Source: an uncultured delta proteobacterium (GTDB lineage: Bacteria; Desulfobacterota; Syntrophobacteria; BM002). From it: DNA of 64,000 bases. The position numbers and the translations under genes were made by a program. Below the pieces are notes generated by a model, which worked only from the letters and a program-made list of their open reading frames with translations, did not search any database and was not told where the DNA came from. This document shows positions 1-16,773 of this stretch, in pieces. The stretch is taken from assembly GCA_963712115.1 (NCBI GenBank), contig CAVQGX010000006.1:21662-85661 (forward strand), given 5' to 3'. The stretch's first letter is position 1; every line of letters starts with the position of its first letter.

Positions 1-1061
1 CAGGGATAGCCTCGCAGCAAAGTCTTGGCTTCCGGGACGCTACCCGGGTTATCCATTTTCATTTCACTCGACAAGCGCTTGAGAAAGTATTCGGTCAAAA
101 GGTCAATGTCTTCAGCCCGTTCGCGCAGCGGTGGCAGCCAGAGAGTAACCACTTTGAGACGGTAGTAGAGATCTTCCCTAAAGCGTCCTTCTGCGATGGC
201 AGCTTCGAGGTCTCTGTTGGTTGCGGCGATGATCCGGACATCCACCGGAATGGGCTCCCGTCCACCTAGTCTTTCAATACTTTTTTCCTGAAGCAACCGC
301 AGTATCTTGGCCTGGATGCTGAGGGGCATGTCCCCTATTTCATCCAGAAAAATGGTGCCGCCGTTGGCTTGCTGAATTTTTCCCAGACGACGACTTACCG
401 CTCCGGTAAAGGCTCCCCTTTCATAACCGAAAAGCTCGCTCTCGAGGAGAGTCTCGGGAATTGCCACGCAATTGATCACCAAAAATGGTCTATGTGCCCT
501 TTTGCTGTGCTGATATATGGCCCGAGCCACCAGCTCCTTGCCCGTCCCGGACTCGCCCCTAATCAGTGCGGTGGCATCGGTGGAAGCAACCCTCCCTATG
601 GCCTTGTAAATCTCCTGCATTGGTTTGCTCCGGCCAATAATGGCATCCGCCGACGGCTTGTCTGGAACTATGTCCATCTCTACCCGCGAGTGCATAAGTC
701 GACCGGCCTCCAAGGCATCCCTTACCAGGGCAAGGATATCGGGAATATTGAAGGGTTTGAGGACGTAGTCGAAGGCACCCTCCTTGGTGGCCTCTATAGC
801 CGTTTCAGTAGTGCCATAGGCGGTCATTATTATTATGGGCAGCTTGGGCTCTACTTTGCGCATGGCCCTGCTGGCTTCCAGGCCATTAATTCCTGGCAAG
901 CGCACATCCATGACCACCAAATCAGGAGGAGATTGTCGCACCATGGCCAGACCTGATTCGCCATTGGCCGCTGTCTGCACCGTGTGCCCCTCCTCAATGA
1001 GAAGCTTTTCAAAGCTCTGCCTCAGTTGAGGATCGTCATCAACGATTAGGACCTTGCCCAA
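1..1061 (-). CDS. Sigma54-dependent response regulator (NtrC/AtoC family), 3' end runs off the window
   Basis: Not in the ORF track. Manual translation from TTG at 1061 (GGAGG upstream) gives GKVLIVDDDPQLRQS...DLVVMDVRLPG...FDYVLKPF, then GESGTGKE and ESELFGYEKGAFTGA. Confidence 0.93.
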   Translation of the reverse strand, partial: MGKVLIVDDDPQLRQSFEKLLIEEGHTVQTAANGESGLAMVRQSPPDLVVMDVRLPGINGLEASRAMRKVEPKLPIIIMTAYGTTETAIEATKEGAFDYVLKPFNIPDILALVRDALEAGRLMHSRVEMDIVPDKPSADAIIGRSKPMQEIYKAIGRVASTDATALIRGESGTGKELVARAIYQHSKRAHRPFLVINCVAIPETLLESELFGYERGAFTGAVSRRLGKIQQANGGTIFLDEIGDMPLSIQAKILRLLQEKSIERLGGREPIPVDVRIIAATNRDLEAAIAEGRFREDLYYRLKVVTLWLPPLRERAEDIDLLTEYFLKRLSSEMKMDNPGSVPEAKTLLRGYP

Positions 1062-1882
1062 ACTGCATCCTCCCGGCACGGCAGGGTAATGGTAAAGGTC
1101 GTCCCCTCACCCTCCTTGGATTTCAGAGATAGCCAACCACCGTGTTCCTCTACGATGCGGTAGGCAATGCTGAGCCCCAAGCCCGTCCCCTCTTCCTTGG
1201 TGCTAAAAAAGGGTTGAAATACCTGATCACGAACTGATTTTGGAATACCAGGACCGTTGTCTTTCACCCGTATTACCACCACCCGGCCCAAAGGCTCAAC
1301 CACGCCTTCTTCCTCACGAATGACAATCAAGCCGCCTTCGCCCATGGCCTCACAACCGTTTACCAGTAGATTAATCAAGACCTCTTTTAACTGCTCGGGA
1401 TCGGCCTCTATCATGGGCAGACGGTGTTCCCGGTCAAGCTCTACCTGGACACCGTAGGACTCTAACCGATGTCGAAGGAGCTGCAGTGCCATGTCCACTA
1501 CCTCGGAAGGACTGATACTCTGAATTTTCAGCTTGGGTGGTCGGGCAAACTCGAGAAAGTTTTGGACGATAGTGTCAATGTGGCGCACTTCCTCCGAGAT
1601 CACCTCGAAGTCCTCTTGCTGGGTTTGAGAAAGTTCCAGCGACCGTTCCAGGGAGAAAAGCCTCATGTTCACAGAAGTCAGCGGGTTGCGGATGGTGTGA
1701 GCCACTCCCGCAGCCAGTTTTCCCACCATGGCCAGTTTCTCCGCCTGCAGAAGGTGCGCGCGGCTCTGTTGTAGTTCAGACTGTGTCTGATCTACGTTCT
1801 CCATGAGGCTGTGGACTCTCTGGCTTAAGGCGGTCATCTCCCTGGGGAGGGAGCTGTTGATGTCTACGTCACCCGCTTCCAT
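1046..1882 (-). CDS. Sensor histidine kinase, C-terminal HisKA/HATPase part (joins 1893-2534 across a 1-nt frameshift)
   Basis: H-box AHTIRNPL, N-box NLLVNG, G1 DNGPG, F-box FQPFFSTK, G2 GTGLGL. Confidence 0.88.
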   Translation of the reverse strand: MEAGDVDINSSLPREMTALSQRVHSLMENVDQTQSELQQSRAHLLQAEKLAMVGKLAAGVAHTIRNPLTSVNMRLFSLERSLELSQTQQEDFEVISEEVRHIDTIVQNFLEFARPPKLKIQSISPSEVVDMALQLLRHRLESYGVQVELDREHRLPMIEADPEQLKEVLINLLVNGCEAMGEGGLIVIREEEGVVEPLGRVVVIRVKDNGPGIPKSVRDQVFQPFFSTKEEGTGLGLSIAYRIVEEHGGWLSLKSKEGEGTTFTITLPCREDAVWARS

Positions 1883-1892
1883 GGATAGTATT

Positions 1893-2534
1893 CTAATTGG
1901 TTTCAGGATCTGATTCAGCAGGATATAGGCCAGCAGAATAGCCCAAAACCAGGACGCTTGGTAGAGCCACCAGGGTCATACCTTTAACCAACCGTGTCTG
2001 AGCACGACTCTTGATCCGAGCGTCATTGATTTCTTCCTTCTTGATTGCCCTATATTGATCGCAGAGACCCTGGATGGCGAAGAACTGCTTCCTCACATCC
2101 CAGTGGCGCTCGGCCCCGGCTTCCCGCTTGCCGGCCTGATATAGCTGAATTACTTGGTCCCGGGCAAAGATATAACGAAGGTACTCTGATTCGATCTGAT
2201 TGAGGATGCTTCGCTCATTATCTGTCTGGGCCGAGTTGCGGGCTTTCTTTAGCCAGGTATGGAAGGACTCGTTGAGTTCCTCCAATTGGTTGAGCCAGTC
2301 AGGGTTGCCATCGAGGAAATAATAGGTTGTCAAACCCTTTTGCCTGACCAGAGCCGTCTCCAGCTCTTCCGCCGCCTGTAACCCCATCACGGCACTATCA
2401 AAGACCGAATCGAAGAGATTCGCCATCCGGTAGGTATGCCACATGGTGACGAGGCCACCGCCTAGAGTGGTCAACACCAAGGCAGCCAGAATCAAGATGA
2501 TTCGACTGCGCAGGCTTAGTCGTTTCATGATCAC
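1893..2534 (-). CDS. N-terminal TM plus periplasmic four-helix sensor part of the same histidine kinase
   Basis: TM, helical domain, TM. Removing one base from the C-run at 1942-1944 reads VLVLAILLAYILLNQILKPIRILSMEAG into the kinase ORF. Confidence 0.8.
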   Translation of the reverse strand: MIMKRLSLRSRIILILAALVLTTLGGGLVTMWHTYRMANLFDSVFDSAVMGLQAAEELETALVRQKGLTTYYFLDGNPDWLNQLEELNESFHTWLKKARNSAQTDNERSILNQIESEYLRYIFARDQVIQLYQAGKREAGAERHWDVRKQFFAIQGLCDQYRAIKKEEINDARIKSRAQTRLVKGMTLVALPSVLVLGYSAGLYPAESDPETN

Positions 2535-2634: not shown

Positions 2635-4449
2635 CTATGCTGAGTCGCCCCCGCCCAGGTGTACCGCAAGCCTCTGGTGAACAGGCTCTTTCTTGGCCCC
2701 ATCCTCTGGTGGCAGTGGTAAGCGGACATGGAAGGTGGTTCCCAAACCCACCGCACTATTCACGCTGATTTCTCCTTCCATCTTTTTAATGATGCCATAG
2801 CAGATGGAAAGACCCAATCCGGTTCCCTTGCCCACTGGTTTGGTGGTGAAGAAGGGATCGAAGATCCTGGCAAGATTAGCTTTAGGAATGCCTTGCCCGG
2901 TATCGGCAACGTCCACCACCACCTGGCCGCCATCAACTCGGGTAGTAATTTCAAGAGTTCCACCGTCAGGGGTCATGGCGTCCAGAGCGTTATTGACCAG
3001 ATTAAGTAATACCTGTTCAAATTCCGATGGTGAAACATGGACCTCCGGCAGGTGTTGAGCAAGGTTTAAGTTGAGTTTCACATTGCTGTACTTTACTCGC
3101 TGTTCGGAAAGCGCGACCACTTCGTCTATGAGCTCGTTCAATTGTACTTTACGAAGTTCCGGATCTGTCTTCCGGGCAAAGCTCAAAAGCTTGTGAGTTA
3201 TTTGTTTACAACGTACCCCTTGGTTTTTGATCTGTTTGAGAGCTCTTCGGACCTCGGCTGGATCTTCACAGGTGCCGTCTTCCTCTAGTAGATCCTCAAT
3301 CCAGCCTGCCTCCTCCACCATTATTGCCACCGGGTTGTTGATTTCGTGGGCTATGCCGGCCGCCAACTCTCCCACCGAGGCCAGTTTGCCTGCTTCAATG
3401 ATCTGCTCGTTCATCATTTCTTTTTCCCGGTCAGCCCAGACTACGCGCTTGATGATTCTACTGGATAAGATGAAAGCCATGCTTACGATGCCCAGGCCGC
3501 CCACAAGGAAGATGACCAGGGCCAGCTTTCGAGCGCGATACAGATCTGCGAAGGCATCCGTCGCATCCTGTTGGTAGACTAGCAGCCACTCCCCTTTTTT
3601 CAGCGGAGTGCTGACACTGATGTACTCCCCACCCCTATTTGGATCGCTCTCTATTACGGTCACCGGCTGCCGGTCATTTTTCTTTTTACGAAGCCGATCC
3701 GTTGCTTCTAAATGACCTTGGTCCTCGGGGGGCAAACCTTGGTGGAAACTCTTGACGAGCAGGTCCACATGCTTTCTGCTGTTCTGCCTAGCCGCCAGTG
3801 GGGCGTTGGTCTGAAATTCTCCCTCGTGGTTGACGATAAAAGCGATGCCGGTCTTACCAATGCGGAGATTCTCCACCAGAGAATTGAAAGCGACGAAATC
3901 AATAGTGGACCGCAAAATCCAGGTGCCACCCTGCCACTCCTTCTTGACTGCCACAATAAAATGGGGCAGCCCTCTGATGCCCAGAAATACATCGCTGATA
4001 AATTGCTCACTTTTCAGAGCCTTTTTAAACCAGTCCGCCTCAGAATAGTTGACCCGAGCCAGCTTGAAAGCCCCGGCGTAAGCGACCTGGAGGCCGTCCC
4101 CATTGACTAAACCCAGGTCCACGAACACCCCACCGTGTTCTTCCTGGAGGATGGCCAGTTTTCCCTGAAGAAACGACTCATCACGCAACTGCTCTAGGCT
4201 AAAGGTTCTGGTCATCACCCTGATATCGGCCAATTTTTCATCGAGAAAACCGTCGATATTTTGCCTGTGTTTCTGCACCACTTCTTCCAGGTGGGCAATT
4301 ACCTTTTCTTGGTAGGATACTTGGAACTGGTAGAGGATCATCCCGGCAATAAGAAGGAGGGGCGCAAAAGACACAAGAATCATGACCAAGAGCATGTTTC
4401 TCTTGAGCGTTCTGTAATAGTATGGGCCTACTATTTTCTTACCTTTCAT
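2635..4449 (-). CDS. Cache-domain sensor histidine kinase
   Basis: Two TMs around a Cache-like domain (FVDLGL, YAG, WF, SDVFLG, PHF), AHEINNP, DTGQG, GTGLGL. ATG 4449 preferred; ORF track opens at 4458. Confidence 0.92.
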
Positions 4450-4475
4450 GGACCACAACTCTGTTCATCTGGCTC

Positions 4476-4798: not shown

Positions 4799-6316
4799 TT
4801 ACTTGGGCAGTACCACAGGCATGCCCAGCAAAGGCCAGATGACCAAGGCAGCTACACCCACCAGAACCATGAGCAGAACACTGGCCGGAATACCATAGAG
4901 AAAGAATTCCCCGGTGGTAAACTGCTTGGAGTCATAGGCAATAGCATTGGGCGCCGCACCCACCAAGAGCAGGAAGGGCATACCGGCGGTGACCAGGGAG
5001 GCAAATAGAACAACCTCGGGGGCAACCCCCAGGTATGGGGCGATGACCAGGGCCACCGGCAGTGAAATGGCGATGGCTGCCACGTTCATGATGAAATTGG
5101 TCATAATCATTACGAAGAAGGCAATGCTCAAGACAAAAACAAACCAGTTTGCCTTCTGGAACATTACCAGCCAGTTCACTGCCAGCCATTTGGCCGCGCC
5201 CGTTTCCCACAAGCAAAAGCCGATGGACATGGCACCGCCGAAAAGCAGGATGATGTTCCAGGGAATATCTTCCAGGTCTTTGAGGTCCAGAATCCTGGTG
5301 AGATAGAAGAGGATGGTGGCAATGAGGATGACCGCGGACTTGTTGAAAGGTTTCAGTGCTGGAAGGAAAGATTGCAGCGACAGAAAGATAATTGCAGCAA
5401 GGACGATTAAAATAGTCAAAATCTCCCTGCCGGTGATGCGACCCATTTGAGCCTGGAGAGTCTTTGCCTTTTCTCGCAGACCGGGGATGGTCTTTTTCTC
5501 CGGTTTGAAAAAGATCATGAAGAACCCCCAGAGCACGAAGACCATCAGCCAACCAATGGGAAACATATAGTAGGTCAGCTCAAAAAAAGTGACCTCCCTG
5601 CCGACAATGCCCTTGAAAAAGCCTATGGCCACCGCCCCTCGGGCTGCGCCCAGGAGGGTGATGATGCTGCCTGCCCCGGCCACGTAGGCCATGCCGATGA
5701 AGAGACCTTTGCCGAACTTTGTGGGTCTCTCCCCTTCACCATAGAGTGAATAGATGGTTAGCATCAGAGGGTAGACTGTGGCTGCCACCGCAGTGTGGGC
5801 CATGACGTGGGTGAGGGCTGCCGTTACCAGAAAGCAGCCGAGATAGATCATGCTGGTTTTCTCGCCGACAATGGAGAGCATTTTATAGGCGAGCCGCCTG
5901 GTAAGCCCAGTTTTTGTGAAAACCATACCAATCACAATGGACCCAAAAATAAACCACACCGAAGGATCCATGAAATCCTTGAAGGCTTCCGAAGCTGTTC
6001 GAATGAGAAACATCGACTGCATCACCCCGATGGTAATGGAGGTGACGCCGATGGGGACCACCTCAAATACCCACCAGGTCCCTGCCAACAAGAACACGGC
6101 CAGGGCACCCTTCGCTTCTTTGCTCAGGGGGAAATGTTCTCCCATGGGATCAACAGCGTCGGGCCAGGGAGGTGAGTAGTAGACGATAGTGAACAGCACC
6201 ACTCCCAACATAATAAAAAAGATTCTCTTCCAATTCATTCTCGCCAACAGAGAGGCAATGCCTCCTTCCTCGCGGGATGCTTCAAGGGCCAGTTCTTGCA
6301 CAGGTGTATCAGACAT
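4799..6316 (-). CDS. DASS/SLC13 family anion (sulfate or dicarboxylate) transporter
   Basis: 505-aa polytopic membrane protein with MAHTAVAA, GAGS..TLLG, TNFIMNVA and GAAPNAI motifs. Confidence 0.9.
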   Translation of the reverse strand: MSDTPVQELALEASREEGGIASLLARMNWKRIFFIMLGVVLFTIVYYSPPWPDAVDPMGEHFPLSKEAKGALAVFLLAGTWWVFEVVPIGVTSITIGVMQSMFLIRTASEAFKDFMDPSVWFIFGSIVIGMVFTKTGLTRRLAYKMLSIVGEKTSMIYLGCFLVTAALTHVMAHTAVAATVYPLMLTIYSLYGEGERPTKFGKGLFIGMAYVAGAGSIITLLGAARGAVAIGFFKGIVGREVTFFELTYYMFPIGWLMVFVLWGFFMIFFKPEKKTIPGLREKAKTLQAQMGRITGREILTILIVLAAIIFLSLQSFLPALKPFNKSAVILIATILFYLTRILDLKDLEDIPWNIILLFGGAMSIGFCLWETGAAKWLAVNWLVMFQKANWFVFVLSIAFFVMIMTNFIMNVAAIAISLPVALVIAPYLGVAPEVVLFASLVTAGMPFLLLVGAAPNAIAYDSKQFTTGEFFLYGIPASVLLMVLVGVAALVIWPLLGMPVVLPK

Positions 6317-6373: not shown

Positions 6374-6814
6374 TCACCACGACTTGGATTTCATCAGCTC
6401 TTTGATCCTCTCCTCATGTCTTTTTGAAACGAGAAGCATTCTCTTGTCTTTGGCTTTTTTGATTTTCTCCAAGAGCTCCTTGAAATCGGCAGGTTTTTCC
6501 ACGAAATCCATGGCGCCCAGTTTCATGGCCTCCACACCTTTGTCAATAGTGCCGTGACCGGTGAGTAGAATAATTTGTAGGTCTGGATTGATTTCTTTGA
6601 GCTTCTTCAGGGTCTCCAAGCCGTCCATCTCTGGCATGAGAAGGTCGAGGACGATTGCATCGTAGGCCTCTCCTTTGGCCTTGTCGATAGCCTCGGAACC
6701 TCCCCCGGCTGTTTCAACGTTGAACCCCCGGCCCTCCAGTCTTTCCGCCAGCAATTTGATAAAGTGCGGCTCGTCGTCAACCAGGAGTACCTTAATTTCT
6801 TCTGCTGAAGTCAT
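6374..6814 (-). CDS. Single-domain response regulator
   Basis: VLLVDDE, VLDLLMP, LTGHG, EKP. Confidence 0.93.
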   Translation of the reverse strand: MTSAEEIKVLLVDDEPHFIKLLAERLEGRGFNVETAGGGSEAIDKAKGEAYDAIVLDLLMPEMDGLETLKKLKEINPDLQIILLTGHGTIDKGVEAMKLGAMDFVEKPADFKELLEKIKKAKDKRMLLVSKRHEERIKELMKSKSW

Positions 6815-6828: not shown

Positions 6829-7278
6829 CTAATCATCTTCATCCATGATTTTCTTTGCGGATTCGAAGTCTCCGGCCTCCGCAAAGGTTGCAGCCACCAT
6901 GGTATCTTCCATCTTGCGCCTGTAGGCGGCTTTCATCTTTTTTACCAACACATCCAGATTCACCGGTTTTTCCAGGTAGTCAAAGGCACCCAGCCTCTTG
7001 GCTTCCTCCTCGTCCTTTTCAGTCCCGTGGCCGGTGAGTATGATCACCTGGATCTTCGGATATGCCTTCCTCACCTGGCGCAAGACCTCCATCCCATCTA
7101 TACCGGGCATCTTCAGATCCAGGACCATGACGTCTGGCTCCTGGTCTTCCACAAAGGAGAGGGCCTCCTCGCCGTCTAGGACGGTATCCGAGCGCAGATC
7201 GCGCATCTTTAACCGTTCTGCCAAAGCCTTGACGAATTCCTCCTCATCATCCACCAGCAAAACCTTCATATCTTTCAT
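6829..7278 (-). CDS. Single-domain response regulator with C-terminal MVAATFAEAG tail
   Basis: VLLVDDE, VLDLKMP, LTGHG, EKP, then a short helical tail. Confidence 0.93.
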   Translation of the reverse strand: MKDMKVLLVDDEEEFVKALAERLKMRDLRSDTVLDGEEALSFVEDQEPDVMVLDLKMPGIDGMEVLRQVRKAYPKIQVIILTGHGTEKDEEEAKRLGAFDYLEKPVNLDVLVKKMKAAYRRKMEDTMVAATFAEAGDFESAKKIMDEDD

Positions 7279-7280
7279 GC

Positions 7281-7835
7281 TTACTCCTCCTTTTCGGGAG
7301 CAGATATCGGCTCTTTCCCCTCTTTGAGGATCTGCGTGGCACCGTTGAAGTCTCCCGATTCGGCCAATGTAGCAGATACCATAAGATCTTCAAGTCTTTT
7401 CCGGATTGATCTCTTTTTCTTGCCCTTCTTCGACTTTTTCTTCGCTCCAGCCTCTCGCAGTTTGGCCAGGAGATCCTCGAGGTCAAAGGGAATCAGCAGG
7501 TCGGCAAAAGCACCCCGTTTCATGCCCTCGATTGACCAGTGGATGCTTGAAGGACTCGTCAGGGTAATGAATTCGGCGAAAGTTTTTGTCTCCTTGATGG
7601 AATCCAGGATTCTGATTCCACTTGCACCAAGATCATTGACGTTTATGACCACCACATCAATGTCATCACGCTGCAAAATGGCAAGTGCCTCTGAGGCTGT
7701 CTGGGCAAAGCTGACCGCCACTCCCTTTGAGCAGATACGCTCGGACAGTGTCCCCATAAATCTTGAGTCTTCGCCAATCAGCAGGACATTCTCCTTCACA
7801 CTATCCAAACCCCCTCTTGGTGAGAGCGTTTCCAT
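7281..7835 (-). CDS. Pseudo-receiver protein with C-terminal MVSATLAESG tail
   Basis: Receiver pattern, but the phospho-Asp position is Asn (VVVINV) and the conserved Lys is Ile (LLIPF). Confidence 0.8.
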   Translation of the reverse strand: METLSPRGGLDSVKENVLLIGEDSRFMGTLSERICSKGVAVSFAQTASEALAILQRDDIDVVVINVNDLGASGIRILDSIKETKTFAEFITLTSPSSIHWSIEGMKRGAFADLLIPFDLEDLLAKLREAGAKKKSKKGKKKRSIRKRLEDLMVSATLAESGDFNGATQILKEGKEPISAPEKEE

Positions 7836-7870
7836 TATTGGTTCTTCCGCAAGAACCCCATTATTAAGGC

Positions 7871-7929
7871 TAGCCCGGATTTTTCATGAATCGCGGTCGC
7901 AGCAGGTGATTCATGGAATTTCCGGGCTA
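7871..7929. repeat. Palindromic element, family B
   Basis: TAGCCCGGA...CATGAATCGC / GTGATTCATG...TCCGGGCTA. Related to 22144-22270 and 63355-63406. Confidence 0.75.
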
Positions 7930-8256
7930 AGCATTTACCGGGACCAGGCCGGACCAGATTTTCACGCCCGCCAGTGGAGAATCTTCTACGGGGATCCAGC
8001 CGATCCAAACTTTAACACCGGGAAGTTCCAGACGAGCCGCTTTTGCCTTTCTGCCGCTCACTTGCAGAAACTCCCTGGCCGTATCAGCTAGCCCGGCCTC
8101 GGCGAAGGTGATTGCGGTCATCCAATCATCCAAAACCAACTTTTTCTTCCTAGTCGCCTTCGCGCCCACAAAACACAAGGCAGTTTCATGCTCGTTTGCC
8201 TCGGCAAAAGTCACCGCATTCATCAAATCTTCTAATCTCTTTCTCAGACCTTTCAT
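7927..8256 (-). CDS. Small hypothetical protein with two FAEA repeats and two GVK(V/I)W repeats
   Basis: AAGGAG RBS before ATG 8256 and downstream of a sigma54 promoter. The ORF-track start at 8316 overlaps that promoter. Confidence 0.8.
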   Translation of the reverse strand: MKGLRKRLEDLMNAVTFAEANEHETALCFVGAKATRKKKLVLDDWMTAITFAEAGLADTAREFLQVSGRKAKAARLELPGVKVWIGWIPVEDSPLAGVKIWSGLVPVNA

Positions 8257-8299
8257 GGCCATTCTCCTTTGTCCGCAATGATCTTTGCCTATACTATTT

Positions 8300-8315
8300 A
8301 GCAATGACCGTGCCA
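8300..8315 (-). promoter_or_regulatory. Sigma54 -24/-12 promoter
   Basis: Minus strand TGGCACGGTCATTGCT. Confidence 0.85.
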
Positions 8316-8377
8316 TACAATTTTTTATAGTTATTATAATTATTTAGATTCTAAGGTCATTACAGAATGATTTATTA

Positions 8378-8428
8378 TGTTTCAAATTAAGTCAGTAGAT
8401 ATTGATTCAAATTGTTTCAAATGAATCA
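8378..8428. promoter_or_regulatory. Candidate upstream activator sequences
   Basis: TGTTTCA-AAT-TAAGTCA, TGATTCA-AAT-TGTTTCA and TGTTTCA-AA-TGAATCA, 60-115 bp upstream of the sigma54 site. Confidence 0.55.
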
Positions 8429-8469: not shown

Positions 8470-9186
8470 TCATGCATACTTTGCAGGAAAGGAGAGGATT
8501 ACCTTGTTTTGCCTTTCGTCCTCTTGCTCAGCGGCAATGGTGCCGCCCAACCCTTTCATGGTTTGGGCTAATAGGGCGAGGTCTGATTCACCTTGTTCTG
8601 CCTCAGCCGAAGGGTCGGCGGAGACTAGTGCTCCTATCTTGTCTGCCTCAACCGTCCCTTGGTCTGTTACCGTCACCTGGAACATTTCTCCGGACCGATC
8701 TGTCTTCACCGTTACCTCAGCCTCCCTGGGGGAGCAATTGATCGCCCGTTCGATGAATCCAAAAATTACATAAAGAAGGCGAAAGGGGTCGCTCTGGAGG
8801 TGCAAGGGTTCAGAGTCCAGTTTCGTTTCTAGATTTACCCGACGCAGGGTGGCAAACCTTTGGGCCAGAATAACAGTTTGCTTGACCGTCTCATTGAGAT
8901 CCAAGTCTACCAACGACTTGTCCATGCTGTGAGCGAACTGGTTCAACCGTTTAACGATAGCCGCACTCCGTTGCACCTGTTCCTCTATGGAACCAATCAG
9001 GTTGGTCAATCGTGAGTACTGTGGCCAATCGTCGGGCGCGTCTTTGCGCAGAAGATCTCCCATGAGCCCGACTGACTCGTTGATAATGGCGAGAGTGTTT
9101 TTGATCTCATGGGAAAGGCTGGCAGTCACTTTGCCCATGAAACCTATCTCTTTTACTCTGGAGAGTTCTTCAACCTTTTTCTCCAT
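8470..9186 (-). CDS. Sensor-less HisKA protein with degenerate HATPase domain (candidate phosphotransfer protein)
   Basis: H-box SHEIKNTL intact. N-box Asn absent (FGFIERA), G1 reduced to DQGT, no F or G2 box. Confidence 0.8.
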   Translation of the reverse strand: MEKKVEELSRVKEIGFMGKVTASLSHEIKNTLAIINESVGLMGDLLRKDAPDDWPQYSRLTNLIGSIEEQVQRSAAIVKRLNQFAHSMDKSLVDLDLNETVKQTVILAQRFATLRRVNLETKLDSEPLHLQSDPFRLLYVIFGFIERAINCSPREAEVTVKTDRSGEMFQVTVTDQGTVEADKIGALVSADPSAEAEQGESDLALLAQTMKGLGGTIAAEQEDERQNKVILSFPAKYA

Positions 9187-9190: not shown

Positions 9191-9568
9191 TCAATCCGTG
9201 CTTACTTTACTTGCGGCTTCTTTCATTTTCTCCAGCATTTCTTCTATGTCCACCGGCTTGATCAGATAATCAAAGGCACCCAACCTCATTCCTTCGATAC
9301 CCTCCCTGGTGGATCCATGGCCGGTCAGCAGGATGACCTGGGTATTGGGGTGGGTCGATTTGATTTGCCTCAGGACCTCCAGTCCACCCAACCCCGGCAT
9401 CATCACATCAAGAATGACCACCTCGAATTCCTTTTCCACCAGCCTGGCCAATGCTTCTTCCCCGTTCAGTGCGCTGTCCACCTCAATACCTCGCAACATG
9501 AGTCTCTCTGAGAGGGCCGAGACAAATTCTTCTTCGTCATCAACCAGCAACACTCTATATTCTGCCAT
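9191..9568 (-). CDS. Single-domain response regulator
   Basis: VLLVDDE, ILDVMMP, LTGHG, IKP. Confidence 0.93.
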   Translation of the reverse strand: MAEYRVLLVDDEEEFVSALSERLMLRGIEVDSALNGEEALARLVEKEFEVVILDVMMPGLGGLEVLRQIKSTHPNTQVILLTGHGSTREGIEGMRLGAFDYLIKPVDIEEMLEKMKEAASKVSTD

Positions 9569-9578: not shown

Positions 9579-11313
9579 CTATGCCATCTTGCATTTCCGA
9601 GGAAGAACTACGGTGAAAGTGCTACCCTTTCCTAACTTACTTTCCACTCTGATGTCACCACCGCATTTGGCTACAATGCCGTAAGAAATGGATAGTCCCA
9701 GTCCGGTACCTTGCTCTTTGCCCCTCGTGTAGAAGGGATCAAATATGTGTTTCAGGTCATCCGGGTGAATACCACGGCCGTCGTCGGCGATTGCAACTTC
9801 AACGATGTCCGGTTCCGTCTCATTTTCCTTGGTAGCAATGGTGATGTTGCCCCCATCCGCCACCGCTTCAAAGGCATTGTTAATGATGTTCAAGAACACC
9901 TGCTGCAGCTGACCCCTGTCGTGGGCGATGGGGGCGAGATCCGGGGCAAGGTTGAAATTTACCTTGATATTTCGGTGGAAGGCCTCCTTCTCCAAAAAGC
10001 CCAGCACCTCTTGCACCAGCTCGTTGAGGTAGATTGTCTCAACCTTGACATCCATGCGCTTGGCGAATCCGAGGAGTCGATGAGTGATTTCCCGGCAGCG
10101 GTTAACCGACCTCAAGATGGATTCCACCTGCGACAGCAATTTCTCCCGGTCATGGTATTCCTTGGAGAATTCTACCAGGTCTTTAAGCAAGCCTGCTTTT
10201 TCGTTGATGATGGCCAGGGGGTTGTTTATCTCATGAGCCACACCAGCGGCCAGCCTCCCCAGTGAAGCCAGCTTGGCAGTTTGCTCCACTTCGATGTAGC
10301 AGGATTCACGCTTTTGATCGGCTTCGCGGATTCGATCTACCAAGAGGCCGGCAGTCCTGAAAGAGACTATGAGGATGACTGCCACACTGACCACCAGGAC
10401 CAGGAGAAGTTCGCTTTTCAAGGTAAACCAGCCGGCCATCACCTCACCAGGTTCCTTGATCAGAACGAGAATAAAAGTGGCACCCCGCAAGTAGGCGTAA
10501 CCTAGCAGGTGTTCTCCGTGATCGTCCTTCGTTCTGGTTATAACCGCTTCCTGACTCATTGGTGGGACTGGAAGAGAAACTTTTTCCAGGACGTTACCGT
10601 GGAATCGCGAAGGTGTCTGCAGGACACCCTCCCGATCTATAAGAAATATATCGCTCCCAGGTCTGAGGGTGATGGTGCTAATGAGCTGGTTGAACTTCTC
10701 GGTGTCAATGGTGGCTCGCAAAACATAAAAATCACCTTCGACAGTATCCCGCTTGATGGCTATGACGAAATGGGGAAATTTCCGGTATCCCAGGAAAACG
10801 TTGCTGACGTAGACCCCACGAAGCTGTACCTCCTGAAACCAGTCTTGATCTCGGTAATTCTTGCCCTTGAGTTCGTAGGGCCCGGCGTAGCTTCGCTGTA
10901 GACCGGAAGAGTCGATAAGACCGAGGTCTACAAACTCGGGGAACTCTGCCCTCAGACTCTGAAAAATGAAATTGAGACGGCCTTGGTTGCTCAGTTCCTC
11001 AAAAGTGCGCTCCCGGATCAGCAACCTCAGGGTGGACTCCCGCTCGCTCAGGAAAAGCTCGAGGGTGTGTTTTGCACTGGTGATCAACCTCGTCAGCGGT
11101 TTGACAATTTCTTCCTTGAGCGCACTCTGATACTGATAGTAGTTGATTGCCGCCATGAGCAGCAGAGGAATGATCGCAGTGGCGCAGACAATCAAGACAA
11201 AATTCTTGCGCAGGAGGTTGTATCGTTCAGGCCCCTCCCCGTAGTTGGGGAAAGTCCTTCAAGCCTTTGGGCATCAGCCGTCGAAACTTTTGCCAGATAC
11301 CGCTCATCTTCAT
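9579..11313 (-). CDS. Cache-domain sensor histidine kinase (paralogue of 2635-4449); 1-nt frameshift near the 5' end
   Basis: ORF 9579-11195 has AHEINNP, DDGRG, GTGLGL. Removing one G at 11247-11250 extends it to ATG 11313 (MKMSGIWQKF...ERYNLLRKNFVLIV). Confidence 0.88.
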
Positions 11314-11664
11314 CAACCTTGAGAAGCTTCTCCACTCAGGATCGCTCCGGGCTCAAGTCTACCACCTCTGGCAAACTCCAGGGCCCGGTCGTACGGCGCT
11401 ATTACAGAATCAATAACCCTTACCTCTTTTCCAGGTGAGATACTGGAAATACTCCTCCTCTATACCACCACAGATTACCATGGTGATCCCTTCGGTGAGA
11501 ATCAGGTGACAAAGATCTTCAGCGGACACGCTTGGTAAAACCACAGTTTTGCAGTGCAGCACCTCGCCAGTGGAATCCACCGTGGCAACCAGTACCTCGC
11601 TGGTCAGGTCAAAGCGGGGCGCCACCTGGTCTCGCCAAATGGTAATCAACAGTTTCTCGTTCAT
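11313..11664 (-). CDS. NifB/NifX-like (dinitrogenase FeMo-cofactor family) small protein; 1-nt frameshift
   Basis: VAPRFD and VICGGI motifs. ORF 11410-11664 continues WKEVRVIDSVIAPY...SQG* to 11313 if one base of the T-run near 11427-11430 is removed. Confidence 0.75.
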
Positions 11665-11676: not shown

Positions 11677-11692
11677 AGCAATTATCGTGCCA
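11677..11692 (-). promoter_or_regulatory. Sigma54 -24/-12 promoter
   Basis: Minus strand TGGCACGATAATTGCT. Confidence 0.85.
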
Positions 11693-11743
11693 CATATAAA
11701 CTGTAATAAAATCAATATTTTGAGTATATAGTAAGATTTTATT

Positions 11744-11815
11744 TGTCTTATTTTGAGACAAAACAAAACACTAGGTTAATTTCATTTTGGTACAAAATTG
11801 AGACTATTTGAGACA
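11744..11815. promoter_or_regulatory. Candidate upstream activator sequences
   Basis: TGTCTTA-TTT-TGAGACA (11744), AATTTCA-TTT-TGGTACA (11778), TGAGACT-ATT-TGAGACA (11799). Confidence 0.6.
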
Positions 11816-11832: not shown

Positions 11833-13242
11833 TCAAACCAGATTGTGCTGCTTCATTTTCCTCCACAGGGTTGACCTACCCCAGCCAAGAAGTTTGGCCG
11901 CCTTGCTCCTGTTGCCCCTGCTCTTCAGCAGGGCCTCGGAGATCATGCGACGCTCCATCTCTCGCCAGTTGAGCCGATTGTCAGCGACTCTCGTTTTCAT
12001 CTTCTCGTCCGCCAGTCCAGGGTAACTGTCCCTTTCGCCACCAGTCACCCCGGCCTCCGGTTGCAGGGACTCATCCCATGCTCCTCCAAGATAATCAGGC
12101 AAATGTTCTGGCTTTATAATGGTTTCATGGCAAACATTGGTGGCATATTCCACCATGTTGCCCAACTCGCGCACATTACCCGGGTATGGATACCGTCTGA
12201 GGATCTCAATGGCTTCCGGGGAAAAGGTTCTGATTTTCTTTTGAAATTGTTTGTTGAATTTGTTGAGGAAATACTCCATGAGTAGTCTTATATCTCCTTC
12301 CCGCTCACGCAGGGGCGGTACTTCGAGCCTCACCACATTGAGTCGGAAAAGAAGGTCTTCCCGAAAATTTCCCTGCCGCACCATGGCCTGCAAATCACGA
12401 TGGGTTGCGGCGATCAGCCGCACATCGGCTCTTGCGCTTCTGGTCCCGCCCAGAGGGATAATTTCCTTGTCATCGAGGAAAGTCAGAAGCTTGACCTGAA
12501 GGGTCAAAGGTAAATCGCCAATTTCAGTTAGATAAAGCGTCCCTCCGTCGGCCAGTTGGAATCGACCGGGCTTATCCCGCACAGCACCCGTGAAAGCGCC
12601 TCTTGTATGACCGAAAAGCTCTGACTCCAAGAGAGTCTCGGGCAAAGCGCCGCAGTTGATCTTAATAAAAGGCCCTTGCGCTCTGGGGGACACCCGATGG
12701 ATCACCGAGGCAATGAGGTCTTTACCAGTGCCGGTCTCTCCTGTTATCAGCACTGAGGAATCAGTCTGTGAGATAATGGGAAGAATGTCTAAAAGTTTTT
12801 GCATCTTGGGGCTGTGACCAACCAGGTCACTGAAATCGTGAGCTATTTGAGTCTTCTTATCCAACTGACGGAGCAGCGAAATATCCTCGATCGTCTCTAT
12901 CACCCCTACAGGCTGACCTTCATCGTCCTTGAGGACAGAGGCGTGGATCATAACCGGAATTTTTTGTCGTTCCCGGTTGATTATGTTTCCTTCAAGGTGA
13001 ACAGCTCGGTCACTTTCCAAGGCCTGTTTTGCCGGACACTGCTGAGTACAGAGGTTATTCCTGATGATGTGAGAACAGCCAACCCCAATGGCCTCCTCTC
13101 GGCTGAAGCCGGTCATGGCCTCAAGGGCTCGGTTTATTGCCTGGATCCGCATGTTTGTGTCAAGAACAGCGACCCCTAGAGGAATGCAGTCTATTACTTC
13201 GTCTAGCTGGACACTTTTGTTTGGAAAAGAAGAAAAATCCAT
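11833..13242 (-). CDS. PAS-domain sigma54-dependent transcriptional activator (PAS-AAA+-Fis HTH), OrpR-like
   Basis: GETGTGKD, ESELFGH, GAFTGA, YPGNVREL, C-terminal HTH. PAS carries C-x8-C-x3-C. Confidence 0.92.
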   Translation of the reverse strand: MDFSSFPNKSVQLDEVIDCIPLGVAVLDTNMRIQAINRALEAMTGFSREEAIGVGCSHIIRNNLCTQQCPAKQALESDRAVHLEGNIINRERQKIPVMIHASVLKDDEGQPVGVIETIEDISLLRQLDKKTQIAHDFSDLVGHSPKMQKLLDILPIISQTDSSVLITGETGTGKDLIASVIHRVSPRAQGPFIKINCGALPETLLESELFGHTRGAFTGAVRDKPGRFQLADGGTLYLTEIGDLPLTLQVKLLTFLDDKEIIPLGGTRSARADVRLIAATHRDLQAMVRQGNFREDLLFRLNVVRLEVPPLREREGDIRLLMEYFLNKFNKQFQKKIRTFSPEAIEILRRYPYPGNVRELGNMVEYATNVCHETIIKPEHLPDYLGGAWDESLQPEAGVTGGERDSYPGLADEKMKTRVADNRLNWREMERRMISEALLKSRGNRSKAAKLLGWGRSTLWRKMKQHNLV

Positions 13243-13559: not shown

Positions 13560-14033
13560 ATGAAACGTAGTGAAACAGCTCCTTTTACTGTGCAAGAAGC
13601 CTCAGGAGCGGATGCTACCGCCATTCTAGCTTTGGCAGATGTGCACCGGGACGAATTGGGGGCAATCATGCAGCATCGACAGTGGCTGTTGCAACAAGTA
13701 GAAATGGGAGAGGTTTTCGTCGCCAAAGCTGCCGAGGGCAAAGTGATAGGCTTCGTTGTTTTCAGTCACCAAAGTCTCAGGAAACAAGAAAATACCACCG
13801 TCTACTATCTTTGCACCAGTAAAGATTATAGGGGGCAGGGAGTTGGAAAATTGCTTATGGAGGCAGTGGCCTCCGATGCGCGAATCCGCGGCAAAAAAAC
13901 TATAGACCTGAAATGCCCGGCTCACGCTCCAGCAAATTACTTTTACAAAGGCATTGGCTACAAGTTATTGCAGAGTGAAACAGATCAGCAGGGCGGCCGT
14001 CTAAATGTCTGGACTCTACGTCTCTCGGAGTGA
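13560..14033 (+). CDS. GNAT family N-acetyltransferase
   Basis: Motif A YRGQGVG and ANYFYKGIGY. Confidence 0.88.
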   Translation: MKRSETAPFTVQEASGADATAILALADVHRDELGAIMQHRQWLLQQVEMGEVFVAKAAEGKVIGFVVFSHQSLRKQENTTVYYLCTSKDYRGQGVGKLLMEAVASDARIRGKKTIDLKCPAHAPANYFYKGIGYKLLQSETDQQGGRLNVWTLRLSE

Positions 14034-14106
14034 TTGATTTTGTTTTTTTATTGTATCGAATTATAAATACATCATTTCAAATCACCGGGGTTTCGGGAGA
14101 ATCACC

Positions 14107-14661
14107 ATGAAAATAAAGACCGTCAGGGATATAATGACTCCTCTTTCCGAGTACGGGACGATTTCGGAGGAGGCCACTTTGTATGAGGCTGCTGTGGCCC
14201 TGGATAAAGCTCAGCAGGAGTTCCAGCAGGATCGTAGCCGGCACAGATTGCTTCTTATCGTTGATCAGAATGGAGAGGTCAAGGGAAAGATCAGCCAGTT
14301 GGATGTGCTAAGAGCCCTGGAACCAAAGGGAGAGCACATCGAGGACTCACGGTTATTGAGACGTTTCGGCGTCAGCAGGGAGTATCTAAAGCCCATGCTC
14401 AAGCAGTTTCACTTTTGGGAAAAACCACTGATGGACCTCTGCAAAGAGGCAGGGAGGCTCAAGGTGAAAAGGTTGCTCCATGCCCCAGCAGAAGGAGAGT
14501 TCGTCGATGAAAATGCTTCTCTGGCCGAAGCCATCCACCAATTAGATATGGGGCATTATCAGTCTTTGTTGGTCACAAGGGGCAAAAAGATTGTGGGAAT
14601 CTTGAGACAGAGAGATATGTTCAAAGAGGTTTTTGAGACTCTAAGCATTTGTGAGTTGTGA
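14107..14661 (+). CDS. CBS-domain protein
   Basis: VRDIMTP, GKISQLDVL, VGILRQRDM. Confidence 0.85.
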   Translation: MKIKTVRDIMTPLSEYGTISEEATLYEAAVALDKAQQEFQQDRSRHRLLLIVDQNGEVKGKISQLDVLRALEPKGEHIEDSRLLRRFGVSREYLKPMLKQFHFWEKPLMDLCKEAGRLKVKRLLHAPAEGEFVDENASLAEAIHQLDMGHYQSLLVTRGKKIVGILRQRDMFKEVFETLSICEL

Positions 14662-14718
14662 ACAGGCACCACCTGCTAGACTGACAGTTATCTGCAATCT
14701 ATCTTCTGGAATTTACCA

Positions 14719-16194
14719 ATGCCTAAGGTTTTAGAAGCTGGTACCAACAGCGACAGTTTCAATTGGAAGAGGATAGTTCTCTTACTAATGGGAATACTGC
14801 TCTTTGCCTTGGTCTATTATTCCCCTTCCTGGTCCGAGGCTGTTGACCCAGTGGGAAAGCACTTCTCTCTGAGCAGAGAGGGAAAAGGTGCCTTGGCGGT
14901 CGCACTCCTTGCCTCAACCTGGTGGGTATTTGAAGTGGTGCCAGTGGGAATAACCAGCCTGGCCATTGGCGTACTCCAGGTTTTTTTCTTTATTCGTCCT
15001 GCTAAAGAAGCTTTCAATGACTTCATGGACCCTTCGGTCATGTTCATCTTCGCCTCCATTGTCATCGGCATGGTTTTCACCAAGACAGGCTTGACCAGGC
15101 GTCTGGCCTACAAGATGCTGGTGATCGTGGGGGAGAGAACCAGCATGATTTACCTGGGCTGTTTTGTTGTCACCGCAGCTCTCACCCACATCATGGCCCA
15201 TACAGCAGTGGCAGCGACTATTTATCCTCTAATTCTATCCATTTATGGACTTTACGAAGCAGACGACAAACCGACCCGATTTGGAAAAGGGCTCCTCATT
15301 GGCATGGCCTATGTGGCTGGAGCCGGCAGCATCGTTACCCTTCTGGGGGCCGCGCGAGGCCCCGTTGCCATAGGCATCTTCAACGATGTTGTAGGAAAGG
15401 ATGTTGGCTTTTTCGAGTTGAGTTACTACATGCTCCCCATCGGATGGCTTATGACCTTTCTGCTATGGGTGTTTTTCTTGATCCTCTTCAGGCCTGAAAA
15501 AAAGGTCATACCCGGCTTAAGAGAAAGAGCCATCCGGCTCAATGCCAGCCTTGGTCCCATGACCAGAAACGAGATCACTGCCGGTTGCATAATTTTGGGC
15601 TGTGTCCTGGTAATGTCCTTGCGTTCCTTTATTCCTCTTCTAAAACCGCTGGATAAAACTGCCATTATTGTGACATCCACAATCTTGTTTTTTATTACCG
15701 GCATTCTCGATATCGACGATCTCGAAGAGATCCCCTGGGACATCATTCTCCTTTTCGCAGGTGCAATAAGCTTAGGTTTTTGCCTCTGGGAAACTGGGGC
15801 AGCGAGATGGCTGGCGGTGAAGTGGCTTATGAAATTGGAAGGAGCCAACTGGTTCCTGTTCGTCATGGGCATTGCATTTTTCGTCATGATCATGACCAAC
15901 TTCATCATGAACGTGGCTGCTATTGCCATCTCCCTTCCGGTGGCCCTGGTTATCGCTCCCTATCTGGGGGTGGCGCCGGATGTCATACTCTTTGTATCTT
16001 TGGTGGCAGCCGGCATGCCATTTCTCCTACTGGTAGGAGCTGCACCGAATGCCATTGCTTATGAGTCAGGGCAGTTCACTGCCGGTGAATTCTTCGCCTA
16101 CGGAACTCTGGCAAGCATCATACTTATGGCAGTAATGGCTCTTGCGGTTTTCTTTCTCTGGCCTCTGATGGGAATGCCCATTTTTGTGTCGTAG
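14719..16194 (+). CDS. DASS/SLC13 family transporter (paralogue of 4799-6316)
   Basis: Long identical stretches with the first copy, e.g. IAFFVMIMTNFIMNVAAIAISLPVALVIAPYLGVAP. Confidence 0.9.
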   Translation: MPKVLEAGTNSDSFNWKRIVLLLMGILLFALVYYSPSWSEAVDPVGKHFSLSREGKGALAVALLASTWWVFEVVPVGITSLAIGVLQVFFFIRPAKEAFNDFMDPSVMFIFASIVIGMVFTKTGLTRRLAYKMLVIVGERTSMIYLGCFVVTAALTHIMAHTAVAATIYPLILSIYGLYEADDKPTRFGKGLLIGMAYVAGAGSIVTLLGAARGPVAIGIFNDVVGKDVGFFELSYYMLPIGWLMTFLLWVFFLILFRPEKKVIPGLRERAIRLNASLGPMTRNEITAGCIILGCVLVMSLRSFIPLLKPLDKTAIIVTSTILFFITGILDIDDLEEIPWDIILLFAGAISLGFCLWETGAARWLAVKWLMKLEGANWFLFVMGIAFFVMIMTNFIMNVAAIAISLPVALVIAPYLGVAPDVILFVSLVAAGMPFLLLVGAAPNAIAYESGQFTAGEFFAYGTLASIILMAVMALAVFFLWPLMGMPIFVS

Positions 16195-16230
16195 CGCACC
16201 CTGGCTTCAGCGTCCTATTAGTTCCAAGCG

Positions 16231-16260
16231 AAAAAAAGCCAGGAGACATTCCCCTGGCTC
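16231..16260 (-). terminator. Intrinsic terminator of the TSUP/DUF1634 operon
   Basis: Minus strand AGCCAGG-loop-CCTGGCT followed by a T-tract. Confidence 0.65.
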
Positions 16261-16756: not shown

Positions 16757-16773
16757 TTCTTCACCTCACTGAA

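Follow-up and report, generated by a model that had tools for sequence, protein, structure and literature searches.

A probable, divergent TPR-like hairpin shared by a receiver, a pseudo-receiver and a small protein in a signaling operon of an uncultured delta-proteobacterium

Introduction

In an uncultured δ-proteobacterium of the Desulfobacterota (assembly GCA_963712115.1), one operon of two-component genes creates a puzzle: Why do three adjacent proteins, a canonical receiver (RR2), a pseudo-receiver and a small protein, carry the same peptide, M-x-A-x-T-F-A-E-A-G-x-x-x-A? The operon lies in the 64,000 nucleotides of contig CAVQGX010000006.1 that were analyzed here, hereafter the window, which according to Pfam and NCBIfam models also contains two DASS genes, a TauE gene, a CBS protein, a USP and at least three kinases. 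A sequence-only reading of the window had reported four copies of the peptide in one operon, and the translations and coordinates confirm each of them in its place: two in the small protein and one each in the tails of the pseudo-receiver and RR2, all on the minus strand (table 1).

Table 1. Features of the operon and its surroundings (positions in the window)
Feature	Position	Strand	Basis or sequence
Sigma-54 enhancer-binding activator, PAS + AAA+ + Fis-type HTH	11833..13242	-	Pfam Sigma54_activat 1.8e-67, PAS_9, HTH_8
Sigma-54 promoter before NifX-like ORF and kinase operon	11677..11692	-	TGGCACGATAATTGCT, exact TGGCAC-N5-TTGCW match
NifX/NifB-like 'dinitrogenase FeMo-cofactor' small ORF, 84 aa	11410..11664	-	Weak NCBIfam MrpORP match and synteny
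Kinase A, sensor histidine kinase with periplasmic dCache	9579..11195	-	Pfam dCache_1, HisKA, HATPase_c; conserved neighbor
RR1, plain single-domain receiver, no tail motif	9191..9568	-	Pfam Response_reg 3.2e-29
Cytoplasmic kinase-like protein	8470..9186	-	Sub-threshold HisKA and HATPase_c
Sigma-54 promoter before small gene	8300..8315	-	TGGCACGGTCATTGCT, perfect TGGCAC-N5-TTGCW match
Small protein gene, 109 aa	7927..8256	-	Two TPR-like hairpins and two C-terminal L-x-G-V-K-V/I-W-x-G strands
Small protein, hairpin unit 1	8179-8244	-	RKRLEDLMNAVTFAEANEHETA
Small protein, hairpin unit 2	8077-8133	-	LDDWMTAITFAEAGLADTA, 34 residues after unit 1
Small protein, C-terminal repeats	7987-8025 and 7936-7974	-	LPGVKVWIGWIPV and LAGVKIWSGLVPV
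Pseudo-receiver, 184 aa, Lys-rich linker	7281..7835	-	Pfam Response_reg 41.5 bits
Pseudo-receiver tail hairpin	7338-7403	-	RKRLEDLMVSATLAESGDFNGA
RR2, canonical receiver, 149 aa	6829..7278	-	Pfam Response_reg 1.1e-29, 103.3 bits
RR2 tail hairpin	6856-6915	-	KMEDTMVAATFAEAGDFESA
RR3, receiver without motif	6374..6814	-	Pfam Response_reg 2.3e-32
DASS-family sodium-coupled anion symporter	4799..6316	-	TIGR00785 204.4 bits (cut-off 198.6), Pfam Na_sulph_symp
Kinase B, second dCache sensor histidine kinase	2635..4458	-	Pfam dCache_1, HisKA, HATPase_c

A Conserved Module without a Name

Because the motif is short and rich in alanine and glutamate, its recurrence might reflect a chance or compositional resemblance among alanine-rich helices that have no function in common. 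This explanation retains a negligible probability in view of four lines of evidence. First, the pattern M..[AVIST][TAS][FLMY]AE[AS][GNS] matches the six-frame translation of the whole genome (9,800,024 residues) five times, against 0.12 matches expected from composition; four of the five are the operon copies, which lie within 1.4 kb, while the fifth falls in an ORF of 57 residues on another contig. Second, the octamer RKRLEDLM is common to the small protein and the pseudo-receiver but is encoded by different synonymous codons, 7 of the 24 bases being different, which indicates that the likeness has been kept at the protein level and does not stem from a recent copy of DNA. Third, 50 columns are invariant among 17 orthologs of RR2, including A129, F132, A133, E134, G136 and A141 of the tail. 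Fourth, a 40-column profile of the motif retrieves 789 protein clusters (E ≤ 0.001) among 1.84 billion representatives.

The motif is thus a conserved module that has no name. In the source phylum, 63 of the 401 genomes sampled contain it (41 of 254 genera), and it also occurs in Nitrospirota. Its carriers in sulfate-reducing bacteria are receivers, pseudo-receivers, small proteins and proteins resembling universal stress proteins (USP-like), with three to four units per chain in some relatives; architectures were surveyed in the best 150 of the 789 clusters. Matches in the ESM Atlas are confined to unnamed clusters of Thermodesulfobacteriota, and a search of full-text literature with the core peptides returned a single, unrelated paper on vaccine design. 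The profile found no match among PDB sequences; an alignment of 66 motif proteins found four, all with E ≥ 0.15 and none useful (the 57-residue chain mAIT03, two viral polymerases and a PPR protein). With its 789 clusters in two phyla of anaerobes, the module defines a compact and widespread building block, which would provide database curators with a new repeat family to model.

The Module as a Probable TPR-like Hairpin

The sequence-only reading knew of no characterized function for the motif, but the motif does have relatives: the shared peptide, with about 25 conserved residues in a period of 34, appears to form one divergent helix-turn-helix hairpin of the TPR-like kind. The consensus of tetratricopeptide repeats (TPR) places small and large residues at positions 8, 11, 15, 17, 20, 24, 27 and 32. 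Among 261 motif instances, which were picked by columns 11-15 so that only the other columns are independent, A8 is conserved in 97% and A20 in 98%, both outside the selected core, whereas phenylalanine at position 11 and G15 (85%) lie inside it. Position 17 holds an aromatic residue or histidine (H, F, W or Y) and position 24 one of L, M, I or V; hydrophobic residues also occupy positions 2, 6, 9 and 23, and positions 27 and 32 show no conservation. In 97 multi-unit proteins the spacing between units has its mode at 34 residues (37 of 116 spacings) and its minimum at 31, with 58% falling within 32-40; the small protein of the window has the 34-residue spacing too. TPR families also lead the weak Pfam matches of the 66 aligned proteins (TPR_4 in 19, TPR_14 in 12, TPR_12 and TPR_6 in 11 each), although no TPR match listed with a score reaches its gathering cut-off, the best being TPR_4 with 24.8 bits against 27. 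The three window proteins hold one, one and two units, not three or more in tandem.

Since TPR is a known protein-binding fold, this likeness fits the earlier proposal of a docking or oligomerization helix, and the hairpin is most likely a protein-docking module.

The Proteins That Carry the Hairpin

The ATG at 8256 is the most likely start of the small protein, in agreement with the end coordinate given by the sequence-only reading; a GGAG lies at 8264-8267, 7 bases before it, and the alternative ORF of 129 residues from position 8316 would run across the sigma-54 promoter. AlphaFold2 (AF2) predicts helices at residues 3-21, 25-35, 44-55 and 59-65, namely two helix-turn-helix pairs, at a low mean pLDDT of 56. 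The two L(P/A)GVK(V/I)WxG repeats noticed before are indeed there and form the sole such pair in a real ORF of the whole genome; across the family one or two copies are kept, in the form (F)LxxVGLxGVRVWYG. The protein belongs to no Pfam or NCBIfam family, without any Pfam match even at E ≤ 1, and every one of its 131 homologs is annotated as 'hypothetical'.

The pseudo-receiver deserves its label, for it matches the receiver fold while its catalytic residues are replaced: the acidic pair by GE, the phospho-accepting Asp by Asn and the conserved Lys by Ile. In its relatives the replacing residues are others; of seven aligned pseudo-receivers, all have lost the Lys and six the Asp. The receiver residues of RR2 (D10, D11, D54, T82 and K104) are invariant in the 17 orthologs. 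Its helix α5 is continuous with the tail in the AF2 model, which has a pLDDT of 83 overall and 51-55 in the tail; at that low value, the tail is drawn as one straight helix (residues 108-147) and not as a hairpin.

Comparison of 21 trios shows that hairpins at the same position are 0.50-0.57 identical between genomes, versus 0.39-0.48 between positions; judged by sequence, each hairpin position retains its own identity. Fusions of the 'Rosetta stone' kind lend no support to an association of the units, as none of 40 longer representatives scanned is a receiver with two or more hairpins. A search for proteins of more than 262 residues with the RR2 tail likewise found none, but this is weak evidence (six candidates, none of which scored).

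A Putative Phosphorelay

Upstream of the tailed proteins, the kinase-like protein retains an invariant H26 and the THE-x-N signature, while all nine sequences (the window protein and eight orthologs) lack the N, G1 (DxGxG), F and G2 (GxGLG) boxes, in an alignment where two true kinases both possess these ATP-binding boxes. It is therefore a candidate histidine phosphotransferase. Related genomes repeat the gene order kinase A, RR1, kinase-like protein, small protein, (pseudo-receiver), RR2; in two loci, L035 and L036, the small gene lies close behind the kinase-like gene. The tailed receiver is found in all 18 kinase-type loci, from 18 genomes, together with an adjacent small motif protein in 16 and a tailed pseudo-receiver in 9, while the remaining 2 have the tailed receiver without the small motif protein. 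This synteny and the degenerate kinase-like protein suggest a phosphorelay in which the hairpin would be the sole output of the last receiver.

Further upstream, the sigma-54 activator is syntenic in relatives, has a C-x8-C-x3-C in its PAS region and lacks a receiver domain. The NifX-like ORF is shorter than its relatives (116-138 residues), one of which, the ortholog at L040:3670-4053, matches Nitro_FeMo-Co at 1.6e-5.

Transporters and Promoters

Of 79 named motif loci, 65 have a DASS, CitMHS or TauE transporter no farther than about 7 kb away, against 2.2% of random 14-kb windows of the source genome; these loci belong to related genomes and were retrieved via the motif or the small protein, so that their counts are not independent. 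The motif genes do have a conserved link to receivers and transporters, the absence of which would have refuted the sequence-only reading, with tailed receivers in 18 of 18 kinase-type loci. Two or three motif genes are adjacent in 55 of the 79 loci, and 47 total at least three units, while 18 have a single unit. USP-like motif proteins occur in loci that lack a stand-alone tailed receiver; these loci do contain kinases, NtrC-type activators and receiver-bearing Lon proteases. A role of the motif as degron or adaptor for the Lon-receiver protease, present in 16 of the 79 loci, was set aside, since none lies near the window operon.

The anion carried by the co-encoded transporters is probably sulfate. 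In the DASS sulfate-transporter cluster of sulfate reducers, many two-component systems with Cache-domain kinases adjoin the transporters, alongside CBS-domain proteins, and Cache kinases and CBS proteins have been proposed to regulate sulfate uptake (PMC11887813). The hairpin module is unmentioned in that paper, whose main text never uses the terms TPR, tetratricopeptide, CheY or receiver.

The sequence-only reading had further suggested that the DASS transporter might be controlled post-translationally, since none of the receivers has a DNA-binding domain. This argument is weakened by the perfect sigma-54 promoters and by the HTH activator encoded upstream: a transcriptional output is at hand, and regulation need not be post-translational. 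Of 13 relatives checked, 4 have a similar element ahead of the small gene, and in 9 the strict pattern is missing. In the window, a 35-base tandem repeat occupies positions 8356-8425, upstream of the small-gene promoter. Contigs of an RNA library (run X16, 6960-8140) reach from RR2 across the pseudo-receiver into the small gene, but they derive from relatives 90-99% alike and may include DNA carry-over. Contigs of X16 and X18 become thin above about 8240-8270, near the predicted sigma-54 start, while X17 reads through; as contigs cannot define where a transcript starts, this pattern was rejected as evidence.

How Might the Hairpins Work?

From these observations we infer an order for the relay, a binding of hairpin to hairpin and a target. 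The Cache kinase A would pass phosphate to RR1, then to the ATP-blind kinase-like phosphotransferase and finally to RR2, where phosphorylation would alter the availability of the hairpin that continues helix α5. This hairpin would then stack with those of the small protein and the pseudo-receiver into a composite TPR-like bundle of three or four units. The signal would go from this bundle either to the upstream-encoded sigma-54 activator or to the anion transporters encoded alongside, which probably carry sulfate. We favor this four-step model as a whole only tentatively, giving it somewhat less than an even chance, and the single-unit loci imply that hetero-stacking cannot be the sole mode of action.

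The same loci would be readily understood if each hairpin docked on the same site of a third protein instead of binding other hairpins. Several proteins of one pathway bearing the same short conserved surface are typical of docking motifs, USP-like proteins also carry the motif, in loci that encode no stand-alone tailed receiver, and the RR2 tail is modeled as a free, extended helix. Such a partner might be a receiver domain or the kinase-like phosphotransferase; it might also be the sigma-54 activator, a protein of the CBS or USP type, or the transporter on its cytoplasmic side. The small protein and pseudo-receiver would then be competitors or decoys for RR2. Yet A8, F11, A12, G15, A20 and the conserved hydrophobics correspond to packing residues of the TPR consensus, not to an exposed epitope; the 34-residue period within one chain and the three to four units per locus are what stacking repeats predict; and no candidate partner is common to all 79 loci. 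Docking on a common partner is a serious but rather unlikely alternative.

Plain self-association, with the hairpin dimerizing its own carrier via a four-helix bundle and the three proteins acting separately, appears improbable. It too would suit the 18 single-unit loci. Moreover, the RR2 tail continues α5, the usual dimer face of receivers, and USP domains commonly dimerize. However, it leaves unexplained the adjacency of motif genes in 55 of 79 loci, the retention of the tail by a catalytically dead receiver and the conservation, in 131 homologs, of a small protein that is little else than hairpins.

Returning to the stacking model, its boldest form would have a TPR domain split over several proteins and assembled only in one phosphorylation state so as to gate sulfate uptake, with the C-terminal G-V-K-V-W-x-G strands of the small protein serving as ligand or latch of the bundle. 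This version is a long shot; if true, it would constitute a new kind of response-regulator output, in which a signal causes a binding domain to be put together from parts. In the transporter clusters the module occupies the output end of a probable phosphorelay, and the question it addresses is how sulfate reducers regulate their sulfate uptake. 'Single-domain receivers of unknown output' can now be turned into a testable model of three small soluble proteins with an invariant F-A-E core.

Comparison with Known Systems

A close likeness is to TPR itself (Pfam TPR_1, TPR_2, TPR_4, TPR_6, TPR_12 and TPR_14), with which the motif has in common the 34-residue period, positions 8, 11, 15, 17, 20 and 24, and, at low confidence, a predicted helix-turn-helix. 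It differs from TPR in the absence of conserved positions 27 and 32, in a short helix B that leads into a basic and probably disordered linker, and in an invariant Glu at position 13. Moreover, TPR units come at least three in tandem, whereas here one or two are present per protein and the units are scattered over several proteins of one operon.

At the level of the pathway, Spo0F-Spo0B-Spo0A and CckA-ChpT-CtrA are relays using a kinase-like protein that has a phosphorylatable His and no ATP-binding site. The operon resembles them in gene order and box losses, having a kinase, a stand-alone receiver, a His protein devoid of the ATP site and a terminal receiver; in contrast to Spo0A and CtrA, the terminal receiver has no DNA-binding domain, and the phosphotransfer is putative. 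The Rap phosphatases of Bacillus are large, multi-repeat TPR proteins whose targets are receiver or output domains; in them, too, TPR-type helices bind phosphorelay components, a binding that is putative here. Unlike the hairpin proteins, they are large and without a receiver domain of their own, and no sequence relation is suggested.

In gene content, the window compares with the DASS sulfate-transporter cluster of sulfate reducers, sharing DASS genes, Cache kinases, several two-component genes and CBS proteins, but the regulators of that cluster are called WalR-type whereas the window receivers are single-domain (PMC11887813). As for the joining of a receiver to a TPR-type module in place of a DNA-binding domain, an archaeal two-component census lists response regulators of the REC-PAS-TPR and TPR-TPR-TPR-REC architectures (PMC5847659). 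Those entries have a full, multi-repeat TPR recognized by Pfam (PMC5847659), whereas RR2 has a single, unrecognized unit, and the further units are found on the neighboring pseudo-receiver and small protein.

The Motif Copies and Their Spread

The four copies of the peptide M-x-A-x-T-F-A-E-A that the sequence-only reading reported in one operon are all present in the ORF translations exactly as placed, two in the small protein and one at the C-terminus of both the pseudo-receiver and the single-domain receiver RR2. Composition predicts 0.12 matches to the motif regular expression in the 9.8 million six-frame residues of this 4.9-Mb genome; five were found, namely these four and one in a 57-aa ORF on another contig, C31. 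In that locus (C31:291982-297689) the motif protein precedes a 102-aa membrane protein, a TauE permease and a USP, after which come a USP-like protein whose N-terminus holds a degenerate motif copy (RRLERYGEAAALAQAGLQDVAQE) and a Lon protease carrying a receiver domain; the arrangement recurs in many Nitrospirota loci. The small protein and the pseudo-receiver have the octamer RKRLEDLM in common with different synonymous codons, which argues that selection at the peptide level, not recent DNA copying, preserves it. Equally real are the two C-terminal L-x-G-V-K-V/I-W-x-G repeats of the small protein, found in no other ORF of the genome, and the 184-aa protein was rightly called a pseudo-receiver: its acidic pair, phospho-Asp and Lys are all replaced, and its fold scores 41.5 bits.

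Searches with a 40-column profile built from the four copies matched 789 clusters among 1.84 billion representatives (E<=0.001) and, in a sample of 401 genomes from the same phylum, hit 63 (41 of 254 genera). Named records belong to Thermodesulfobacteriota (Syntrophobacterales, Desulfobacterales, Desulfarculaceae, Desulfomonilaceae, Desulfurivibrionaceae and others) and to Nitrospirota of Thermodesulfovibrio type, the nearest being a Syntrophobacterales MAG (92%). The motif recurs in three architectures. Small proteins (45-130 aa) contain it one to three times, larger ones of about 195-270 aa have between one and four copies ahead of a divergent USP domain, and receivers or pseudo-receivers bear a single C-terminal copy. 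The small protein has 131 homologues, every one annotated as hypothetical, and domain scans placed it in no Pfam or NCBIfam family.

Likeness to TPR Hairpins

Over 261 motif instances, Ala is conserved at positions 8 (97%) and 20 (98%), positions 2, 6, 9, 23 and 24 are hydrophobic and position 17 is His or aromatic; positions 11-15 read F-A-E-A-G, columns which served to select the instances and whose conservation is not independent. The motif fits the TPR consensus at positions 8, 11, 15, 17, 20 and 24, departing from it at 27 and 32. Successive units most often lie 34 residues apart (37 of 116), a sharp maximum, and never fewer than 31. Pfam matches of the motif are all below threshold, and TPR families top them: in 66 proteins TPR_4 appears in 19, TPR_14 in 12 and TPR_12 and TPR_6 in 11 each, with PPR, TPR_19, TPR_2, TPR_1 and TPR_8 among the others. 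A PDB sequence search gave no match of the motif to solved structures. AF2 models the small protein as two helix-turn-helix pairs ending in a C-terminus that is disordered (mean pLDDT 56), and RR2 as a confident receiver (pLDDT 83) whose alpha-5 extends through the motif as one long, low-confidence helix.

The module is TPR-like, unnamed in Pfam and NCBIfam, and widespread in sulfate reducers. The reading with the best support takes the peptide for an orphan hairpin of TPR-like type that makes protein-protein contacts and is the output of the terminal receiver; RR2 has no other appendage.

Gene Neighborhoods and Possible Contacts of the Hairpins

Regions of 16 kb were fetched around 20 of the 63 matching genomes, mainly best matches, and 18 were of the kinase type. 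All 18 have a tailed receiver, 16 an adjacent small motif protein with C-terminal G-V-R-V-W-Y-G strand(s), 12 the kinase-like protein (phmmer cut-off), nine a tailed pseudo-receiver and eight a close DASS orthologue, TauE or CitMHS/TrkA_C transporters replacing DASS in others. CBS proteins, USPs and further receivers and kinases surround the fetched loci. In three relatives (L040:10795-11508; corresponding position in L046 and L047) a 237-aa ORF directly follows the DASS gene; Pfam scanning of the L040 protein assigns it to the LCIB-type beta-carbonic anhydrases (7.3e-54), which one would not expect beside a putative sulfate carrier.

A small-protein alignment search yielded 79 named loci. A DASS, CitMHS or TauE gene is present in 65 of them (TauE, which we take to be the TSUP family of a 2018 comparative study, in 47, DASS in 16 and CitMHS in 6), against 2.2% of 14-kb windows drawn at random from this genome, which has eight such genes. 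Motif genes are adjacent in 55 loci, and units number one in 18, two in 14, three in 23, four in 23 and five in one; because the genomes are related and the searches motif-seeded, all these locus counts describe a family, not independent trials. In 21 trios, same-position hairpins are 0.50-0.57 identical across genomes versus 0.39-0.48 to other hairpins of their own genome, so that the four positions are not interchangeable copies.

In mechanistic terms, what would the hairpins bind? The hairpins of the small protein, the pseudo-receiver and RR2 may stack on one another. We tentatively favor this reading because the repeat period is 34 residues, the conserved residues are of packing type, loci hold sets of three to four units and identity follows position. 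Its main rival, that every hairpin docks on one common third partner and competes there, seems somewhat less likely. Simple self-dimerisation of the carriers would account for single-unit loci, yet leaves the adjacency of motif genes unexplained, and we regard it as improbable. We infer both the hairpin target (the activator, CBS or USP proteins, or the transporter) and the transported anion from the gene neighborhood only. The sequence-only reading was sound in its observation, and its interpretation of a docking or oligomerisation helix is supported in part.

Probable Phosphorelay and Transcription

Genes of the cluster and of the adjoining second transporter block
Feature	Position	Strand	Basis or location
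PAS/sigma-54 activator	11833-13242	minus	ORF and domain scan
NifX-like short ORF	11410-11664	minus	ORF and domain scan
Histidine kinase A, dCache	9579-11195	minus	ORF and domain scan
RR1, plain receiver	9191-9568	minus	ORF and domain scan
Kinase-like protein, cytoplasmic	8470-9186	minus	ORF and domain scan
Small protein	7927-8256	minus	ORF and domain scan
Pseudo-receiver, receiver-like, 184 aa	7281-7835	minus	ORF and domain scan
RR2, receiver, 149 aa	6829-7278	minus	ORF and domain scan
RR3, receiver	6374-6814	minus	ORF and domain scan
DASS symporter	4799-6316	minus	TIGR00785 match above cut-off
Kinase B, second dCache kinase	2635-4458	minus	ORF and domain scan
GNAT acetyltransferase	within 13560-18792		second transporter block
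CBS protein	14107-14661		second transporter block
Second DASS	14719-16194		second transporter block
ORF of 139 aa, no assigned family	between second DASS and TauE permease		second transporter block
TauE permease	16774-17727		second transporter block
Tandem USP	17953-18792		second transporter block

The phospho-His box (H-box, T-H-E-x-x-N) of the kinase-like protein is intact, while its ATP-binding boxes, namely the N-box Asn, G1, F and G2, are lost in all nine aligned orthologues; both true kinases of the window retain the missing boxes. Spo0B and ChpT, which are similarly built, carry phosphate between receivers, and the kinase-like protein is, by its sequence, a candidate phosphotransferase of this type in a sulfate reducer. 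Taken with the gene order, this is most simply read as a relay of four steps, in which phosphate would pass from kinase A to RR1, then to the kinase-like protein and finally to RR2; a phosphorelay in this cluster is probable.

Sigma-54 elements and the upstream PAS/sigma-54 activator, which lacks a receiver domain, add a transcriptional arm that was absent from the earlier account. The exact element TGGCAC-N5-TTGCT lies on the minus strand at 8300-8315, ahead of the small gene, and at 11677-11692, ahead of the NifX-like ORF; with at most one mismatch, the pattern has seven matches in the window versus 2.7 expected. Since the first promoter falls inside a 129-aa ORF call, the start of the small gene lies further down, 8256 being the most likely position, with GGAG seven bases upstream. 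A 35-base tandem direct repeat (8356-8425, 74% alike) upstream of this promoter could be the activator's binding site, and the second promoter is preceded by AT-rich (ATTTTGAGACAAAA-like) repeats at 11716-11815. Four metatranscriptome libraries, each from a different study, gave contigs that cover the region with 90-99% likeness. One of these runs over RR2, the pseudo-receiver gene and the small gene (6960-8140); DNA carry-over is possible.

Other features accompany these genes. The PAS domain of the activator contains C-x8-C-x3-C (GCSHIIRNNLCTQQCP), which could bind a metal or an Fe-S cluster or sense redox state. The NifX/FeMo-cofactor-like ORF has 84 aa versus 116-138 aa in syntenic relatives, which may reflect truncation or a different start. 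Two runs have related contigs that lack the 86-base spacer between the small and pseudo-receiver genes (7840-7925); in its place some carry 3 bases, and others about 17-18 bases of another sequence. Downstream of kinase B, translations of 1-2534 (minus) read as another kinase pair and an NtrC-type receiver/sigma-54 activator, whose gene is incomplete, extending past the window start. With the second transporter block (13560-18792) adjoining, the first 19 kb resemble a single large island for anion uptake and signalling.

Comparison with Known Systems

DASS and TSUP/CysZ-type carriers are candidate sulfate transporters of sulfate reducers, according to a 2018 comparative study (PMC5840216). For 26 sulfate reducers, a 2025 paper describes clusters in which DASS-type sulfate transporters are accompanied by Cache kinases, CBS proteins and numerous two-component systems, with sulfate sensing as their proposed role; its main text mentions neither the motif nor TPR or receiver tails (PMC11887813). 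Literature text searches for the motif letters returned no relevant match. The module is experimentally tractable. Receivers with full TPR domains are already on record (PMC5847659), and the single hairpin on the receivers described here differs from these domains.
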